DNA from: a virus
IMG/VR virus record: IMGVR_UViG_3300038435_000067
Span: 1-46,807 of that record
Strand: one strand, 5' to 3'
Length of the DNA stretch: 46,807 nucleotides
The position numbers and the translations under genes are program-made. Positions 2,988 to 44,053 of this stretch are shown in pieces. The notes beneath the pieces are model-generated. The model made no database searches. It saw nothing but the letters and a program-made list of their open reading frames with translations, and was not told the origin of the DNA. Each line of letters begins with the position of its first letter. The first letter of the stretch is position 1.

Positions 2988-3279
2988 AGAACAAAAACAG
3001 GCTGCTATGAAATCAATCTTAAATGATGATCAAATTGATAGTTATGCTAAACAAAAAACAGTAAATTTGATTAATAATTTGGGAATGCCATTTACGAATA
3101 TACTACTATACCGAGAAAATATTGTCAAGGGTAAAGTTTTATGGATAGGAAGTAGTGCTGTTTCTACTGAATATGAAAGGTGTGTTATTCCAGGATCAAC
3201 TATTTCAATAATTGCAGATAAATTAATGAATGAAGATCACGCTTATGTTTTAATGAAAGTGAAGGTGAAAAATGAGTAA
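2977..3279 (+). CDS. Hypothetical protein
   Basis: 100 aa, overlaps the upstream gene by 11 nt. Confidence 0.55.
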   Translation: MTFEEQKQAAMKSILNDDQIDSYAKQKTVNLINNLGMPFTNILLYRENIVKGKVLWIGSSAVSTEYERCVIPGSTISIIADKLMNEDHAYVLMKVKVKNE

Positions 3280-3430
3280 AATATATGTATTAGTTGAAAT
3301 GACAGATAAGAATGGAGGTTGGGAATCACGAAATATTGCGGCTTCTTTAGATAAAGAAAAAATTATTAAAATGATTCCAGAAATAACACCATATTCTATA
3401 CAATATGGAATACAAACATTTGAGGATTAA
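3272..3430 (+). CDS. Hypothetical small protein (52 aa, below the ORF-track cutoff)
   Basis: Hand-translated as MSKIYVLVEMTDKNGGWESRNIAASLDKEKIIKMIPEITPYSIQYGIQTFED. GAAGGTG lies upstream and the ORF fills the gap. Confidence 0.45.
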   Translation: MSKIYVLVEMTDKNGGWESRNIAASLDKEKIIKMIPEITPYSIQYGIQTFED

Positions 3431-3433
3431 GAA

Positions 3434-3652
3434 ATGATTAAACTTTTAATAGGACTAGGATTTTTAGTAGGAATAGTGGCATTTTTAATTTTTATTTATT
3501 CCTTTCCTACTATAGGTATTATTGTAATATTTATACCTTGTTGCTTTTTAATATGCATGTTGGCTTATTGCATTGGAGATGATATAATGTTTGAATATAA
3601 ATGGGGAAAAGCTATAAGAAAATTAAGAAAAGGTGCAAAATATGATAAGTGA
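3434..3652 (+). CDS. Small membrane protein (two hydrophobic helices)
   Basis: 72 aa. Hydrophobic stretches LLIGLGFLVGIVAFLIFIY and GIIVIFIPCCFLICMLAYCI. GAGGA lies 8 nt upstream. Confidence 0.6.
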   Translation: MIKLLIGLGFLVGIVAFLIFIYSFPTIGIIVIFIPCCFLICMLAYCIGDDIMFEYKWGKAIRKLRKGAKYDK

Positions 3653-35514: not shown

Positions 35515-35925
35515 TTAATCTCTTAAAGATTGAGAGCTTTTTTTGTGAGTAAGTATTGGTTCTTCAATCACAGAAAATCTTGATACTTGCCGTGTTGATT
35601 TGTCATCTTCTTTAAGATGTCCATGTTTAATTGCATCTGCCATTTCGAAAGGTTGTGGTCTACCCATTTTATCTTTGTAATTTTCAATAAAAGTACTAAT
35701 AGTTATTTTGTCATTTTTATGAGCCTCAAAATACCAATTTGGTACATCTACAATATCACCCATTTTTACATCACGCATTTCATATTCCGAGCCTGCCAAT
35801 AAACGTTGTTGATAGGATTTAAAATCATTATATTTCATTTTTTTCATATTTTCAACATGTTCCGAATAAATTTCATCCGGTATCATATGTACAGATGTTG
35901 TAACGTTAAATTTTACTTTTTTCAT
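35515..35925 (-). CDS. Hypothetical protein
   Basis: 136 aa, co-oriented and tightly packed with its neighbours. Confidence 0.55.
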   Translation of the reverse strand: MKKVKFNVTTSVHMIPDEIYSEHVENMKKMKYNDFKSYQQRLLAGSEYEMRDVKMGDIVDVPNWYFEAHKNDKITISTFIENYKDKMGRPQPFEMADAIKHGHLKEDDKSTRQVSRFSVIEEPILTHKKSSQSLRD

Positions 35926-36225: not shown

Positions 36226-37445
36226 TATTTATTTTCCAATATAGCTGTTTTGCCTGTAATTTTTTCCCATCTTGCAATTATAACATCGCAATATTTTGGG
36301 TCAAGTTCCATACTATAATTTATTCTATTTGCTTTTTCACACGCAATAAGAGTGCTACCAGAACCACCGAATAAATCTAATACAATATCTGACTTTTTGC
36401 TACTGTTAGCAATTGCAATGTCAACTAAGGCCACAGGTTTTTCGGTTGTATGAATTTTTTCTGTAGGCGCTAATTTTTGCACAGACCAGACATCTTGTTG
36501 CGAACCGTGCGCTGCGTAACTTTCAGCATTTCGTTGTGAATAAAAAATAAACTCATGATTATTTCGATAGTGTCCAAATCCAAGACTCATCCATTCTTTA
36601 TTCCAAATTATCCAAGCATCAATTTTTAAATCAATTTCATTAAATGCTTGTAAAAAAATAGGAGCACACTTCCAATTATTGCACACATAAAAAGGAGCAT
36701 TTTCATTACAAACTATTAATAAATTAGCAAAAACATCCAATAAAAAATTGGTTAATTCTTCAGGGTTTAAATCATCGTTTAAAATCATTGTCATTTGTGG
36801 ACGAATCTTTTTACTTCTCATTCCCGTGCCAGCAGAATATTTAACTCCGTAAGGTGGGTCGGTAAATACCATATTTGCCTTATTTCCGTTCATTAACTTT
36901 TCAACATCATCAATCATTGTGCTATCTCCGCACATAATACGATGATTACCTAATAACCATACATCTCCATATTTGGTTTTTGGTTCTTGAGGTATTTCCG
37001 GAATAAAATCTTCATTTTCTAAAGTCTGCAAAGCATCATCAGAATTATCAGCAAATGGTAATTCCATGCCCCAATCAAGTAATAATTCAGTATCCCATTC
37101 GTTTGCTAATAAGTCAAAATTCCATTGGCCATATTCCAAATTATCTTTAACGATAAACTCATTTATTTTGTCTACAGACCAATTAACAACATGACAAGGC
37201 GCATGAGTATACTCAAGATGTTTTAACGCTCGCAAACGTTGATTGCCGCCAATTACTACGTATTTATCTTCTAAAGCCACAACAACCAAAGTGCGAACTT
37301 CGATCATTTCCGGAAAGTTTTCAATTGATTTAATTGCTTTGATAAATCCATCTTGCGTTAAATCACGGGGATTTTGTTTAACCCCTTCAATTTGTCCATC
37401 ATTTTGCTGTAAAAGCTTTATGTCAATGAGTTTAGCTTCAATCAT
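36225..37445 (-). CDS. ParB-like nuclease domain fused to a DNA amino-methyltransferase
   Basis: ATG at 37445 (MIEAKLIDIK), overlapping the upstream stop. ParB box VIGGNQRLRAL, MTase motif IV FTDPPYGV and SAM motif LDLFGGSGST. Confidence 0.8.
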   Translation of the reverse strand: MIEAKLIDIKLLQQNDGQIEGVKQNPRDLTQDGFIKAIKSIENFPEMIEVRTLVVVALEDKYVVIGGNQRLRALKHLEYTHAPCHVVNWSVDKINEFIVKDNLEYGQWNFDLLANEWDTELLLDWGMELPFADNSDDALQTLENEDFIPEIPQEPKTKYGDVWLLGNHRIMCGDSTMIDDVEKLMNGNKANMVFTDPPYGVKYSAGTGMRSKKIRPQMTMILNDDLNPEELTNFLLDVFANLLIVCNENAPFYVCNNWKCAPIFLQAFNEIDLKIDAWIIWNKEWMSLGFGHYRNNHEFIFYSQRNAESYAAHGSQQDVWSVQKLAPTEKIHTTEKPVALVDIAIANSSKKSDIVLDLFGGSGSTLIACEKANRINYSMELDPKYCDVIIARWEKITGKTAILENK

Positions 37446-37821: not shown

Positions 37822-38243
37822 TTAAAAATTTCCAATTGTAAAAGATAAAAATTATTTAAAAATGTTTCTAATTTGAAAATAGGTAAACCACATTCAATTG
37901 CAAGCTGCATTTCTTTTTCACAAGTTGGATGTAATGATGAATCATAAGGTGCATACACAAAAACATCAGCACTAGTTAATTGATGATAAGAATATTTTCG
38001 TGCTTGCTGCAATGGTTTAATCGCTAAAGCAGGATCAAAACTATCAACTTGAACTAATCCAGAAAATAAGGAACACAGATCATTTAAACGTTTAATGTTG
38101 TATTCAATAATTGCTGGTTCAATTCCTCGCATTGGTTGACACAAAAAAATGCGTTTTTTTGGTTTTATTTCTTCTGAAATATTTGTTGCAGCAACTTTTT
38201 CAGAAGCAACTGATTTATTCACAATTTTTTTTGGTCTTGCCAT
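37818..38243 (-). CDS. Nucleoside 2-deoxyribosyltransferase-like / DUF4406-like protein
   Basis: 141 aa. IFLCQPMRG and ADVFVYAP...EKEMQLAIECGLPIF fit the Rossmann-like pattern of that family. Confidence 0.3.
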   Translation of the reverse strand: MARPKKIVNKSVASEKVAATNISEEIKPKKRIFLCQPMRGIEPAIIEYNIKRLNDLCSLFSGLVQVDSFDPALAIKPLQQARKYSYHQLTSADVFVYAPYDSSLHPTCEKEMQLAIECGLPIFKLETFLNNFYLLQLEIFK

Positions 38244-38548
38244 TATACTTCACCAATAATGTTGCCGCTTGGTTCGTGGGTAGAAGTATCTGGTTCTTTT
38301 TTTAGATTTTCATCTTCAATTTGTGTATTTTTGGCAATTTCGGCTAATTCTTCAGGTGTTAAATCTCTAGGTGCAACAGTTTGAGAATCAAGTAAAAAAC
38401 GAGCCATTCCACCTGCGGGTTGAGTCAATTGAGAATCTTCTCCGTGTGTAACTTTGATCACAAGTCTATTGTCTGCCAAAAGAATTTTAGTAAAAACCAG
38501 ATTCGGTATTGTTGTTTCGTTTACAGCTAACACTTCAGTTATTTGCAT
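38243..38548 (-). CDS. Hypothetical protein, first gene of the long leftward unit
   Basis: 101 aa. The SD AAAGGAAA and ATG at 38548 lie 18 nt after the leader terminator U-tract. Confidence 0.6.
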   Translation of the reverse strand: MQITEVLAVNETTIPNLVFTKILLADNRLVIKVTHGEDSQLTQPAGGMARFLLDSQTVAPRDLTPEELAEIAKNTQIEDENLKKEPDTSTHEPSGNIIGEV

Positions 38549-38566: not shown

Positions 38567-38603
38567 AAAAAAAAACCCCACTCTATAATGAAACGAAGCG
38601 GGG
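38567..38603 (-). terminator. Intrinsic terminator in the leader of the long leftward unit
   Basis: The - strand RNA reads CCCCGCUU-12 nt-GAGUGGGG (8 bp including 2 G-U pairs) followed by U9 (38575-38567). An A-run/T-run on both sides makes it potentially bidirectional. Confidence 0.7.
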
Positions 38604-38610
38604 TTTTCTG

Positions 38611-38660
38611 TTGAATGCGTACATTCAATTCGCTCGTTTCATAATGCAAATTCAATGTAC
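38611..38660 (-). promoter_or_regulatory. Leader RNA alternative hairpins A and B
   Basis: Hairpin A pairs GUACAUUGAAUU (38660-38649) with AAUUGAAUGUAC (38630-38619), 11 of 12 bp. Hairpin B is UUGAAUG-UACG-CAUUCAA (38628-38611). They share the segment 38628-38619 and so exclude each other. Confidence 0.55.
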
Positions 38661-38667
38661 AGACTGC

Positions 38668-38696
38668 ATTATAACCAATGTTTTTGCATTTGTCAA
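38668..38696 (-). promoter_or_regulatory. Consensus sigma70 promoter of the long leftward unit
   Basis: On the - strand: TTGACA (38696-38691), exactly 17 nt, TATAAT (38673-38668). A ~40-nt A-rich tract lies upstream (plus-strand T-rich 38698-38737). Confidence 0.75.
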
Positions 38697-38875
38697 ATTT
38701 TTTTTAATTTTGTTTTTAATTTTTTTATTTTTTGAATTTAACCGTTTAAACGCTCTATAAGCTTTTCATTTTAGCCTGGATATAGTAAGATACCACACCA
38801 CCCATTAAAACTTAACCTACACCCCAAGAAATCGAAATAAACAACATATAGGGTTATGAGTTAAAGTCTGTAAAA

Positions 38876-39793
38876 TCAAATTTGTTGTTTTTGTCGTTTT
38901 TCAAACTCTTCAGATTCGATCACGTGATTTCTGTGTGCAATTAACGAATTGCCGTACAATCGAACATTTTTGCTGTCAGTAATGATGCGCTGTCGTGGCT
39001 TTACTAATGCCCGATAGTTTTGTCCCGTCAATAATGCGTCTTCAATGTCTAGCGCTTCATTTGCCCATTTGTGTAACGTGATTATGGTTGTGCGTATTTG
39101 GTGTGGTTGTAAAGAGGGTTTAGCCAAAATGTAACCGTAGATCATGTCCCATTCAGCGTTAGTAAACTTTGCGTTTTGTTCTTTTGCTATTTTTTGCCAA
39201 CAGTCAAAACTTTCATTTGCCATTTTTTTGATGTAAGGAGGTGTTTCCAAATTTTGCGGAGGGGGTGTTTCCGAAGTCGCGCGCATGCGCTGTACTTGTA
39301 CTACTCTTTCTCTTTCTCTCTCTCTTTCTCTAGGAGCGTTACATTCGTTACAATCACTTGTTACCTGATCGTTACCTTCTGTTACATGTAACGAATGTAA
39401 CGCGTTACATTCTGCATTTGCCTTCTTGCGAAGCCTATATTTTGCAACCCTTTCCGAAGAATCATCATATTTACCAATGAGTTTAGGTACTTCAATAAAG
39501 AAAATTGTATTGTTATCAACATCTTGCATTAAATTTGTGCTTCGTAAAAAACTGACAGCCATTTTTAAATTATCTACCTCTTCATCCAAAATTAATGCCA
39601 ATTCTTCTTCAATTTTTGGCTCTAAATTTTGAAATTCATAGTGACCTTCAGTATTAACTGTGAGCAACATTAATTTCTGATAAATGATCAAATATTTGTC
39701 CCCACCCGCAATTTTTCGCAATTTTTTTACTGCCGGAGAACTAAAAAAATCCACCTTCAATTTCAACCAATTATTTTTTTTATTATCGTTCAT
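38876..39793 (-). CDS. Replisome organizer / replication initiator (phage_rep_org_N-like)
   Basis: 305 aa. The N-terminus NWLKLKVDFFSSPAVKKLRKIAGGDKYLIIYQKLML fits the replisome-organizer N-terminal domain pattern. The central linker overlaps the repeat-rich ori candidate. Confidence 0.7.
   Translation of the reverse strand: MNDNKKNNWLKLKVDFFSSPAVKKLRKIAGGDKYLIIYQKLMLLTVNTEGHYEFQNLEPKIEEELALILDEEVDNLKMAVSFLRSTNLMQDVDNNTIFFIEVPKLIGKYDDSSERVAKYRLRKKANAECNALHSLHVTEGNDQVTSDCNECNAPRERERERERVVQVQRMRATSETPPPQNLETPPYIKKMANESFDCWQKIAKEQNAKFTNAEWDMIYGYILAKPSLQPHQIRTTIITLHKWANEALDIEDALLTGQNYRALVKPRQRIITDSKNVRLYGNSLIAHRNHVIESEEFEKRQKQQI
39304..39331. repeat. 28-nt polypyrimidine (CT-rich) tract, polypurine on the coding strand
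   Basis: ctctttctctttctctctctctttctct, encoding RERERERER in the initiator linker. Confidence 0.9.
39338..39412. other. Candidate replication origin: GTTAC iteron cluster with palindromes
   Basis: Five direct GTTAC(A/C) copies at 39338, 39347, 39360, 39371 and 39381 (9-13 bp spacing). There are also two inverted GTAAC copies at 39388 and 39397 and a sixth direct copy at 39404, a 12-bp palindrome GTTACATGTAAC (39381-39392) and a perfect 20-bp palindrome GAATGTAACGCGTTACATTC (39393-39412). Confidence 0.5.
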
Positions 39794-40209
39794 CTTTTAA
39801 ATCCTACCATTTTATAATTGTCTTTTTCTGATTTTTCGCCACCTGGTTCAATTGGTTTAAAAAATTCTTTGGTGTCTTCATTCCAACGCATTCCAGCATC
39901 TTTCATTGCCATTACAAAATCTCGTTTATCTTTAAATTTTTTATCATTTACTTGGCAAATAGGACAACCCAACCATTTTATTGCGCCAGAAGGAAATCGA
40001 TGTAATTCGTTATCAAAATAACGTTGATGACGTTGACAAAAATCATCAATTTTAGTATCAAGAATATGCGGGATTTTAAAAGTAATCTTATCTTTTTTAC
40101 AATTTTTAAAACCATCTTCTTTTTGACAATTTTCATGACCTCTATGCCACACTTGCATTGTTATTTCATGTTCTAAGGTTTTAAAGGGATTTTCAAGATT
40201 TTTGGACAT
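39790..40209 (-). CDS. Cys/His-rich (Zn-binding-like) early protein
   Basis: 139 aa. HRGHENC...NCKK and GCPICQ clusters. It is the first gene of the short leftward unit, with GGAG 8 nt upstream of the ATG. Confidence 0.6.
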   Translation of the reverse strand: MSKNLENPFKTLEHEITMQVWHRGHENCQKEDGFKNCKKDKITFKIPHILDTKIDDFCQRHQRYFDNELHRFPSGAIKWLGCPICQVNDKKFKDKRDFVMAMKDAGMRWNEDTKEFFKPIEPGGEKSEKDNYKMVGFKR

Positions 40210-40224
40210 TATGGAGGCTCCATT

Positions 40225-40269
40225 AAAAAACCCTATTCATCACAAGGTACTAGCAAGTAAGAAATAGGG
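40225..40269 (-). terminator. Leader terminator-like hairpin of the short leftward unit
   Basis: The - strand RNA reads CCCUAUU (40269-40263), a 25-nt loop, AAUAGGG (40237-40231), then U6 (40230-40225). The ATG at 40209 follows 15 nt later. The stem is short and the loop large, so it is weaker than the 38567 terminator. Confidence 0.45.
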
Positions 40270-40285
40270 CTATTTAAAAGGTTAT

Positions 40286-40323
40286 ACACCAATCAACAGC
40301 CTAGTACGCCACACATTGGTGTG
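40286..40323 (-). promoter_or_regulatory. Leader RNA alternative hairpins of the short leftward unit
   Basis: Hairpin A pairs ACACCAAU (40322-40315) with AUUGGUGU (40293-40286), 8 bp with a 21-nt loop. The overlapping hairpin B is CACAC-CAAU-GUGUG (40323-40310). Confidence 0.5.
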
Positions 40324-40334
40324 CAACAGACATT

Positions 40335-40364
40335 ACTATAACTCAAAATATATCCAATTGTCAA
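40335..40364 (-). promoter_or_regulatory. Leftward early promoter
   Basis: On the - strand: TTGACA (40364-40359), 18-nt spacer, TATAGT (40340-40335). It lies back-to-back with the rightward promoter at 40420. Confidence 0.6.
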
Positions 40365-40419
40365 ATTAATAATATATTGCATTGCACAACAGAAAGTTCA
40401 AAATAAATGCAAAAAAGAT

Positions 40420-40449
40420 TTGACACTTGAATACCTGATGTGGCATAAT
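40420..40449 (+). promoter_or_regulatory. Rightward early promoter P1
   Basis: TTGACA (40420-40425), 18-nt spacer ending in the extended -10 element TGg, CATAAT (40444-40449). Confidence 0.7.
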
Positions 40450-40459
40450 ACAGTCATAG

Positions 40460-40480
40460 GTTGGCAAATTGGTTGCCAGC
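40460..40480 (+). promoter_or_regulatory. 5' leader hairpin or palindromic operator downstream of P1
   Basis: GUUGGCAA-AUUGG-UUGCCAGC (8 bp including one G-U, 5-nt loop), starting about +5 from the predicted start. No U-tract follows. Confidence 0.55.
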
Positions 40481-40503
40481 AAAAACAAAATGAGGTAATA
40501 AAA

Positions 40504-40884
40504 ATGAAAACATTCAACAATCAAACAAATACTTACAAAATTTTCAATTTAATTGATATTAATGGCATCAATTGGGTGGGTGATTTTATTGGCAATACTG
40601 GCGCTTTAAATGATGGCCAATTTAATTGGGATGACGAATTAGATGCCTATATTTGTGATAATGATACTTACGATTGGTGGCAAAATGCTATCAAAAAACA
40701 ACAATGGATCACAAATACTGAACAGGAAATTAAACAACAAATTACAGATAATGTAAAATATGATAATTTTATTAATAATTTTATACAATGTGGAGATAAT
40801 GATTTAGAAATGAGTTTAATGTTACAAATTGATTTTTTAACAAATTTCGCAACAAATAATAATTTACAAATTCAGGAGATTTAA
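40504..40884 (+). CDS. Hypothetical acidic early protein, first gene of the P1 operon
   Basis: ATG at 40504 with GAGG 8 nt upstream. The track start at 40420 is the TTG of the -35 hexamer and is rejected. 126 aa, D/N/Q-rich. Confidence 0.6.
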   Translation: MKTFNNQTNTYKIFNLIDINGINWVGDFIGNTGALNDGQFNWDDELDAYICDNDTYDWWQNAIKKQQWITNTEQEIKQQITDNVKYDNFINNFIQCGDNDLEMSLMLQIDFLTNFATNNNLQIQEI

Positions 40885-43656: not shown

Positions 43657-43698
43657 TGCACCGCACAACAAAAAGTTTAAAATAAATGCAAAAAAGAT

Positions 43699-43728
43699 TT
43701 GACATCTGAATACCTAATGTGGCATAAT
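43699..43728 (+). promoter_or_regulatory. Rightward early promoter P2
   Basis: TTGACA (43699-43704), 18-nt spacer with TGg, CATAAT (43723-43728). Confidence 0.7.
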
Positions 43729-43738
43729 ACGGTCATAG

Positions 43739-43759
43739 GTTGGCAAATTGGTTGCCAGC
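43739..43759 (+). promoter_or_regulatory. 5' leader hairpin or operator downstream of P2
   Basis: Identical to the hairpin at 40460-40480. Confidence 0.55.
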
Positions 43760-43783
43760 AAAAAACAAAATGAGGTAATAAAA

Positions 43784-44053
43784 ATGAAAAATCAAGATTT
43801 ACAAAAATTTATGGATGAATCCTTGGCTCGTGCTAAATTAAACTTTAAATTTAGAAAAAGTATTGAAAAACAATTCGGTTTCAAAAATTTGGCTATATGG
43901 TTTTTATCAAATAATCCTCAAGATATAATTGTAAAAGTTGAATCAAATACCGAAAATTTAGCTATTTTTAATAAAACACCTATCAAATTTATACAAAATT
44001 TTTTATTAAATGAATTTAATCATGAAGTTAAAGACATTGGCTATTCAATTTAA
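43784..44053 (+). CDS. Hypothetical protein, first gene of the P2 operon
   Basis: ATG at 43784 with GAGG 8 nt upstream. The track start at 43748 lies inside the leader hairpin and is rejected. Confidence 0.6.
   Translation: MKNQDLQKFMDESLARAKLNFKFRKSIEKQFGFKNLAIWFLSNNPQDIIVKVESNTENLAIFNKTPIKFIQNFLLNEFNHEVKDIGYSI

Follow-up and report, generated by a model that had tools for sequence, protein, structure and literature searches.

Matched loops of a 5' hairpin and a terminator recur in leaders of uncultured phages and suggest an undescribed kind of RNA attenuator

Genomic context of the leader

The DNA studied here is the IMG/VR virus record IMGVR_UViG_3300038435_000067, whose 46,807 nucleotides (nt) we call the window, and the element in question, unit A, is a leader on its - strand between a replisome-organiser gene and the long leftward series of genes that follows. 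The window holds a phage-like genome (~46.8 kb, ~32% G+C) with no nucleotide relatives among reference phages, and its large terminase is at most 40-47% identical to that of any reference phage. Neither an integrase nor a repressor was identified by PHROGs among the window proteins scanned, and lysogeny genes were not found. The leftward unit starts at a promoter at 40364 and runs through a 139-amino-acid (aa) Cys/His-rich protein and a 305-aa replisome organiser (PF09681, E = 2.8e-20), the latter being the gene upstream of unit A. After a 327-bp gap that holds unit A come 101-aa and 141-aa proteins belonging to no family, a HAD/PNKP-type phosphatase, a ParB-N6-methylase and two small unknown proteins (95 and 136 aa); a weak small-terminase candidate, ~3 kb beyond the first genes after unit A, precedes the large terminase, the virion genes and the endolysin.

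A preliminary description of this DNA, made from its letters, had placed all virion and lysis genes behind unit A and had proposed that read-through there gates their expression. They do lie downstream; the genes nearest to the leader, however, are the two unknowns, the phosphatase and the methylase and not virion genes, and two promoter-like sites with 11 of 12 consensus positions (36304 and 35855) could bypass the gate. These sites, TTGACC-16-TATAAT with an extended TG (36277-36304, - strand) and TTGAAA-17-TATAAT (35827-35855, - strand), lie inside genes, and either could drive the packaging and virion genes without terminator control.

Structure of unit A

All the elements that had been described for unit A were found where they had been placed, on the - strand, to which every coordinate given for units A and B refers. 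The promoter P_A (38696-38668) consists of TTGACA (38696-38691), a 17-nt spacer and TATAAT (38673-38668) and is indeed a perfect consensus, being the sole exact TTGACA-N16-18-TATAAT in the whole window and the sole 12/12 site between 33 and 46.8 kb; both hexamers are identical in the related loci L031 and L034. The A-rich tract (38739-38697) upstream of the -35 hexamer stands where an UP element would be and is not conserved (~13 nt in L034, absent in L031). Transcription is predicted to start at G38660 or U38661, the first base of a hairpin, H1 (38618-38661; 15 pairs, 12-nt loop, -15.8 kcal/mol), which would form the 5' terminus of the RNA. The sequence TACATT at about +2 to +7 matches a -10 element at four of six positions, this being a resemblance only. 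H1 is the hairpin A of the preliminary description, real but longer than the 11 of 12 base pairs and 18-nt loop given for it: RNAfold pairs 38661-38646 with 38633-38618 in 15 pairs with one G.G mismatch, leaving the loop AUUAUGAAACGA (12 nt).

The second hairpin, T (38570-38609), has a core of CCCCGCUU (38603-38596) and GAGUGGGG (38583-38576) with an extension of A/U pairs, amounting to -18.6 kcal/mol for the whole and -12.2 kcal/mol for the core. Directly 3' of the core follows a U9 tract (38567-38575), and then AAGGA (38561-38557) and the ATG (38548-38546) of the first gene, which encodes the 101-aa protein; the distance of 18 nt from the U run to the ATG agrees with the earlier account, as do the terminator and U9 themselves. 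By its sequence T has the make-up of an intrinsic terminator, a G+C-rich stem and then U9, with a 12-nt loop larger than usual. The standard terminator scan, limited to loops of at most 8 nt, skipped T for that reason, and it was our own scan for a hairpin plus a U run that found it. The 95-nt RNA as a whole has a minimum free energy (MFE) of -34.9 kcal/mol against -15.8 +/- 2.8 kcal/mol for shuffled sequences (z = -6.76), none of 200 shuffles being as stable.

The apical loops of the two hairpins are complementary. The segment L1, AUGAAACGA, in the loop of H1 (38634-38642) pairs with the segment L2, UCGUUUCAU, in the terminator loop (38588-38596); a perfect 9-nt match of this kind occurs in ~0.1% of loop shuffles, and the window contains no further copy of L2. 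The longer complementarity reported earlier, 12 bp with one bulged U (AUGAAACGA-GCG against CGC-U-UCGUUUCAU), was also recovered. A third structure, hairpin B (38611-38628; UUGAAUG-UACG-CAUUCAA), is an alternative to the 3' arm of H1 and would form the apex of a transient nested fold. It does exclude H1, as had been noted, yet it is weak (-4.6 to -5.1 vs -15.8 kcal/mol). Two further candidates were rejected: a leader peptide, since by inspection MKRAN in the window and MYRNG in L034 lack a Shine-Dalgarno sequence and their ATGs stand 5 nt apart in the alignment, and a pairing of the leader segment AUUUGCAU with the start-codon region of the first gene, which is seen in the window and lost in L034.

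Relatives of this leader, which we group as family A, are few, the 101-aa protein having only three other clusters among 5.8 billion proteins. The leader of L031/L032 is near-identical to unit A, L033 is a fragment with the 3' arm of the terminator only, and the sole diverged relative is L002/L034, a 45-kb contig whose downstream gene shares 77% amino-acid identity. Both stems are kept in L034, as are the two promoter hexamers and every spacing, and the 19 nt of the hairpin-B block (AATTGAATGTACGCATTCA) are identical and hence show no covariation. At the top of H1 a G-C pair has become A-U and a C-G pair U-A, and in the loop-loop helix two A-U pairs have changed at both positions, to G-C and to U-A, while a G-U has become A-U, with pairing maintained throughout. 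Hairpin A and the pairing of its loop with the terminator are thus conserved in a related phage by compensatory changes. Scans of viral, metagenome and genome collections for more family A leaders, using exact or degenerate DNA patterns (hairpin-B block, terminator arms, arm plus loop), brought up no additional member, only the small clade already named, chance matches and ordinary terminators.

A second unit in the same genome and recurrence in other phages

The hairpin-plus-U-run scan also flagged a terminator-like hairpin at ~40268-40225, between the early leftward promoter and the 139-aa gene. It belongs to a second cassette, unit B (40364-40222), which heads the upstream replication operon and consists of a promoter P_B (40335-40364; TTGACA-18-TATAGT), an H1 (40281-40327) with the 7-nt apical loop GUACUAG (40307-40301) and a terminator hairpin (40223-40277; CCCUAUUU/AAUAGGG) whose apical loop contains CUAGUAC (40253-40247), with U6 at 40230-40225. 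The terminator ends 15 nt ahead of the ATG (40209) of the 139-aa zinc-ribbon-like gene, and GGAG stands between U6 and ATG. Unit B folds like unit A (5' hairpin, short spacer, long terminator hairpin, U tract) and is unrelated to it in sequence except for TCTGT just past the -10 hexamer, so that it is the design that recurs. G-TCTGT lies at the same distance past -10 in unit A (38660-38667) and unit B (40324-40331); TCTGT also starts the leader of unit D, described below (L068, ~3585), and is absent from families C and E.

Other arrangements occupy the place of unit B elsewhere. L034 has instead a 74-aa gene (3267-3491), helix-turn-helix-like by eye and with its own promoter, so that control of this replication operon differs between the two phages. 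A leader of a third kind stands at the nearest relatives of the 139-aa gene (L157, 1040-1100; L155, ~560-650), with TATAAT, an outer stem GAUGGC/GCCAU around two small hairpins, and U7 in L157; no loop-loop complementarity was seen in these two leaders.

Upstream of replication operons in more distant uncultured phages the cassette occurs in three further forms, families C, D and E, which were located via protein homology of the neighbours (replisome organiser, 139-aa protein) and not via the RNA. In family C the loops of H1 and T read GGGAUG and CAUCCC in L063, UGGGGCA and UGCCCCA in L072, GUGGUGGA and UCCACCAC in L067 and L152, GUGGGAAG and CUUCCCAC in L156, and GUGGGAG and CUCCCAC in L154. 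Family D has AUGGUAAG and CUUACCAU (L068), and family E has AGUGAUAG and CUAUCACU in L075 and L083, GUGGUUC and GAACCAC in L078, and GUGGUUC and GAGCCAC, with one U.G wobble, in L077. In all leaders of families C to E the MFE structure consists of two hairpins with 6-8 complementary loop bases, the second hairpin being followed by U6-U7 and then by a ribosome-binding site. The design thus recurs in at least five sequence-unrelated forms (A-E), with 11 distinct loop pairs overall that have 6-9 complementary bases each and divergent sequences. Units B, C, D and E precede replisome-organiser operons, family E sitting directly ahead of the replisome organiser, and unit A follows a replisome-organiser gene; in units A, B and E a purine 7-8 nt past -10 is the first base of H1.

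Among 79 replisome-organiser loci, only five had a terminator-like hairpin within 400 nt upstream, and all five were of this design. New loci picked by homology to the zinc-ribbon-like protein alone carried it in three of five cases, with two new loop pairs, and the different leader of L155 and L157 in the remaining two. No nucleotide match to the window region or to cassettes C and E was found in reference phages, and the design was present in none of five cultured phages with replisome organisers.

Two observations concern neighbouring sequences of these loci. In L154 (3001-3456) the database call of a 151-aa gene begins within the leader hairpin, the real ATG being ~75 nt downstream, past the terminator. 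After the replisome-organiser gene of L063 (4875-4970) and of L065, L066 and L067 (2425-2510) there is a long conserved hairpin ending in GUUUUUGUGGCAG, with compensatory changes between L063 and L067; the window has a different element, unit A, at that position.

Covariation of the loop-loop helix

Covariation is concentrated in the helix between the two loops, hereafter the kissing helix. Of the double compensatory changes in family E, three of three fall in the kissing helix and none in 30 stem pairs; in family C four of five fall in this helix, whose unpaired cells come mostly from L072 and L063, in which the register is off by one alignment column. In family A the share is two of three as counted, H1 itself having one or two. 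Overall, nine of the 12 double compensatory changes belong to the loop-loop helix. L075 and L078 are 89% identical overall, with double changes confined to the kissing helix. Shuffling the loops gave P ~0.001-0.003 per instance, and 7 complementary nt were reached in 0.7% of pairings between unrelated loops taken from different leaders, a null distribution that is the only result used from a two-hairpin MFE parser that missed known cases. When a match was accepted only if its upstream partner fell in a hairpin loop closed by 8 bp or more, there were 11 reverse-complement matches, nine of them the cassettes, against two direct, four reversed and one complemented match in the control orientations and none in 418 kb of unrelated DNA. 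A class proposed on these features (H1, T, U tract, at least 6 complementary loop bases and covariation of the helix) takes in families A, C and E, and units B and D, with one sequence each, show complementarity alone. The distance from stem base to kissing segment is alike in H1 and T (r ~0.6-0.7), and such similar heights fit, weakly, an intramolecular side-by-side contact.

In L077 a U.G wobble replaces a U-A pair, which is consistent with pairing at the RNA level and bears on whether the complementary segments could instead act as DNA, either as an operator built from inverted half-sites or within a replication origin. The proximity of unit A to the replisome-organiser gene, the A-rich tract upstream and the perfect 7+4+7 palindrome TTGAATGTACGCATTCAA would all suit such a role. 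The A-rich tract is not conserved, however, iterons were not found, and we regard this explanation as very improbable because neither the two units of the genome nor related phages have the same complementary segments, the distance between these segments ranges from 43 to 64 bp, the wobble stands in place of a pair, and the palindrome (hairpin B) occurs once in the genome.

Proposed mechanism

We favour, at a probability of roughly 55%, the reading that unit A is one copy of a recurrent phage leader attenuator whose loop-loop contact is selected and sets or regulates the frequency of termination. A sigma-70-type promoter would direct transcription from the first base of the long 5'-terminal hairpin H1, and a few bases past H1 the putative intrinsic terminator T would form, with its unusually large loop and U tract, the Shine-Dalgarno sequence and predicted start codon of the operon lying 15-26 nt beyond. 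The 6-9 bases of the apical loop of H1 may pair by Watson-Crick rules with the apical loop of T, so that both hairpins and the kissing helix would be held together. By default the host RNA polymerase would halt at the U tract and release an RNA of ~95 nt; the downstream genes would then be expressed only by read-through, and the cassette would therefore act as a transcription attenuator. That the contact acts on termination between the predicted start and stop sites is what we infer; our guess is that it helps the large-looped terminator to fold and that occupation of either loop relieves termination. Because the units ahead of replication genes need to be read by the unmodified polymerase of the host when infection begins, their terminators must be leaky or self-relieving. 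Recurrence with differing and still-matched loops suggests an undescribed kind of RNA attenuator.

The preliminary description had proposed a different use of the same complementarity, a built-in antiterminator in which the loop and the top of the 3' arm of H1 pair with the 5' arm and loop of the terminator, hairpin B forms and polymerase reads through. Part of this stands: the nested fold is the MFE structure in transcripts that end before the 3' arm of the terminator has been made, although only in some families, including unit A (-17.1 vs -15.9 kcal/mol) and L034. Hairpin B, moreover, has a UACG loop within the 19-nt block that is identical in the diverged relative, and in the window the pairing extends into the CGCU of the 5' arm of the terminator. 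As a general mechanism, however, stem dissolution fails, the nested fold at full length being 15.8 kcal/mol worse than H1 plus T (-19.2 vs -35.0 kcal/mol). H1 is made first and would need melting; even partial transcripts of C_L063, D and E favour H1 over the nested fold, by 3.6-5 kcal/mol; and hairpin B neither covaries nor has an equivalent outside family A. In L034 no more than the last base of the terminator 5' arm takes part in the pairing, and in units B-E, where the paired segment lies 13-24 nt from the stem base and entirely within the apical loop, no stem base does. The two hairpins can therefore exist together as a kissing complex, and because the match falls in the terminator's apical loop in every family but A, the general mechanism is better sought in a kissing contact than in an antiterminator. 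The nested fold is energetically possible only transiently and only in family A, and we hold it doubtful as an explanation of the element.

The same matched loops could also work in trans. Under this alternative the RNA of ~95 nt would be the active product, its loops kissing nascent or released copies of the leader and providing a dosage-dependent feedback in which they act as a private specificity code. The stems are conserved while the loops of close relatives are different and nonetheless matched (L075 vs L078), two units of one genome have unrelated loop pairs, a perfect promoter would make the RNA abundant, and units B-E precede replication-initiator operons, which is the position of plasmid antisense-RNA attenuators; plasmids pT181 and pIP501 have such attenuators ahead of their replication-initiator genes. 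On the other hand, an intramolecular contact should outcompete one in trans, the matched stem heights point to contact in cis, the window contains no other target of either loop, and neutral drift with compensation could likewise account for the quick divergence of the loops. Dosage sensing in trans is, in our judgement, a possibility to be taken seriously though not a probable one, because conserved stems with fast-changing, matched loops are reminiscent of the specificity determinants in plasmid countertranscripts and in the c4 RNA of P1/P7. With similar reserve we put forward a new class of self-recognising sense-strand leader RNA, with a private dosage-sensing code for each operon and loops under diversifying selection for orthogonality.

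Returning to an attenuator whose contact acts in cis on termination, several points weigh against it. The transcription start, termination at the U tract and read-through are all predictions, and the RNAfold energies omit kissing contacts, hence the stability of the whole kissing RNA is outside these scores. Terminator loops as large as those found here (12-26 nt on a simple reading of the stem) could by themselves lower termination. The kissing helix leaves the terminator stem free, and the RNA product, not read-through, could be the purpose. The cassette is dispensable at a given site, L034 doing without unit B and L155 and L157 having their different leader, and family A comprises only two diverged variants. 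Upstream 7-mers complementary to the terminator loop, counted within 110 nt and without structural context, are not enriched (21 vs 12-25 in direct, reversed or complemented controls), and for this reason the statistics rest on structural context and on cases selected by homology.

The neighbouring zinc-ribbon-like protein

The 139-aa protein encoded behind unit B belongs to a family of small proteins (95-151 aa as called) that are always encoded directly upstream of the replisome organiser, with genes at 39790-40209 (- strand) in the window and at 3491-3913 in L034, 1146-1523 in L067, 3630-4004 in L063 and 3711-3998 in L068. The invariant residues D55, C58, H61, W79, G81, C82 and C85 give the pattern C..H...GC..C, and the members downstream of units B, C and D are homologous to one another; judged from these sequences, the family is probably a zinc-binding replication partner. 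A search of IMG/VR with the family returned the known contig only. As a Q-like factor the protein was rejected, with no sequence relative in PDB, a predicted local distance difference test score (pLDDT) of 62.7 for the AlphaFold model and nothing below E = 2.7 in Foldseek.

Read-through might nevertheless be controlled by a protein, a Q-, N- or LoaP-like antiterminator or an RNA-binding protein for which the kissing fold would be the recognition or loading site. The lambda PR'/tR'-like layout would favour this, essential genes behind a strong-looking terminator argue for active relief, and the small protein with its conserved C58, H61, C82 and C85 is encoded beside units B, C and D. Yet antiterminator families had no match among 30 scanned proteins, which bears out the earlier remark that no Q/N-like protein was recognised (all 30 scanned with PHROGs, 10 of them also with Pfam). 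The small protein has no relative in Pfam, PHROGs or PDB and models poorly, it is missing from family E, and in L034, L155 and L157 it occurs although unit B does not. A protein that reads sequence would poorly suit hypervariable loops, and at the units of early replication operons transcription has to pass before phage proteins have been made. Control by a protein is on balance an unlikely explanation.

Other features of the window

A promoter-leader block of ~108 bp is duplicated on the + strand of the window (40398-40505 and 43677-43785), heading two rightward units, and contains TTGACA-18-CATAAT with an extended TG, a small hairpin UGGCAA/UUGCCA, GAGG and ATGAAA; its promoter type is kept in L034 on the other strand (~3060-3140). 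Between the stop codon of the replisome organiser and the promoter of unit A there are ~180 non-coding bases (38697-38875) that include the A-rich tract, and an inverted repeat (38829-38849 with 38880-38900) spans that stop codon. Nearly all of this region is gone in L034, where ~13 nt are left, and the 20 nt available ahead of the promoter in L031 differ, so that it looks like a mosaic junction.

Comparison with known systems

Promoter-proximal terminators are a classic means of timing phage gene expression, and those known depend on a protein (Q, N) or on RNA of the put type. The cassette comprises RNA features only, and the one property that selection preserves is that the loop of its 5' hairpin can pair with the terminator loop. 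If the contact tunes termination, it would be a compact, protein-free and easily reprogrammed attenuator, it could explain how replication and late genes are ordered in uncultured phages without recognisable regulators, and its 11 natural orthogonal loop pairs would be of interest to builders of RNA circuits. The class acting in trans, if true, would correspond, on the sense strand, to the countertranscripts that control plasmid copy number and to the c4 immunity of P1/P7. Rfam gave no match at gathering score in the window and seven related loci, only generic sub-threshold leader hits, the best local one at 21 bits against cut-offs of 54-55, and full-text literature searches yielded no described terminator whose loop pairs with the loop of an upstream hairpin.

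The likeness to lambda PR'/6S RNA/tR' drawn by the preliminary description holds for the layout, a consensus promoter, a structured leader and a terminator-like hairpin directly ahead of an operon. In both systems a promoter that is strong and constitutive is followed at once by an intrinsic terminator, the default product (predicted for the cassette) is a short and abundant RNA, and a long operon lies behind; by sequence, the cassette has a consensus-like promoter and a terminator within ~200 nt. Unlike in the Q unit of lambda, the gene upstream of unit A encodes a replisome organiser and not Q, the Q family has no match, and the cassette also heads early replication operons. No loop-loop pairing is known in 6S RNA. 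In the Stx-phage version of PR' the short RNA, StxS, is itself a regulator (PMC7547250).

The antisense systems of pT181 (RNA I/II), pIP501 (RNAIII) and pAMbeta1 share with units B, C, D and E a leader terminator before a replication-initiator gene and complementary loops, and more generally loop-loop kissing with the loops as specificity determinants. Complementarity of a plasmid countertranscript is automatic because it is made from the opposite strand, whereas the two halves of the phage cassette share one strand and must co-vary. No antisense promoter was found near the leader, the nearest + strand site (38218-38246) matching at 9 of 12 positions and lying ~320 nt off. The CI RNA of P4 (seqA/B/C) and the c4 RNA of P1/P7 are alike in having complementary segments in one constitutive leader transcript that controls the same operon, with compensatory differences between related phages. 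The cassettes differ from them in having no C4-type Rfam match and no evident tRNA-like processing structure, in that the target is a terminator loop and not a ribosome-binding site, and in that no lysogeny genes were found here.

The put RNA of HK022 likewise has two adjacent hairpins after a promoter and acts in cis without a dedicated protein (PMC9378689). It suppresses downstream terminators (PMC9378689), whereas here the second hairpin is the terminator, the sequences are unrelated and the loops are hypervariable. The pRNA of phi29, likewise a small phage RNA, also has two loops that complement each other and covary among related phages, but these loops pair between molecules to form a ring on the packaging motor, whereas the cassette sits in a 5' leader of a phage with a terminase, and Rfam gave no pRNA match. 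In metabolite riboswitches with kissing loops (purine, guanidine-II) the loop nucleotides are conserved because they form the ligand pocket, whereas the loops of the cassette are wholly different between families and differ between close relatives. The closest systems, lambda PR'/tR', antisense attenuation of plasmid rep genes and the immunity RNAs of P4/P1, each fail at least one defining feature tested here, and we take the cassette for a variant of the transcription attenuator, with a real chance that it represents a class of self-recognising leader RNAs that is new.

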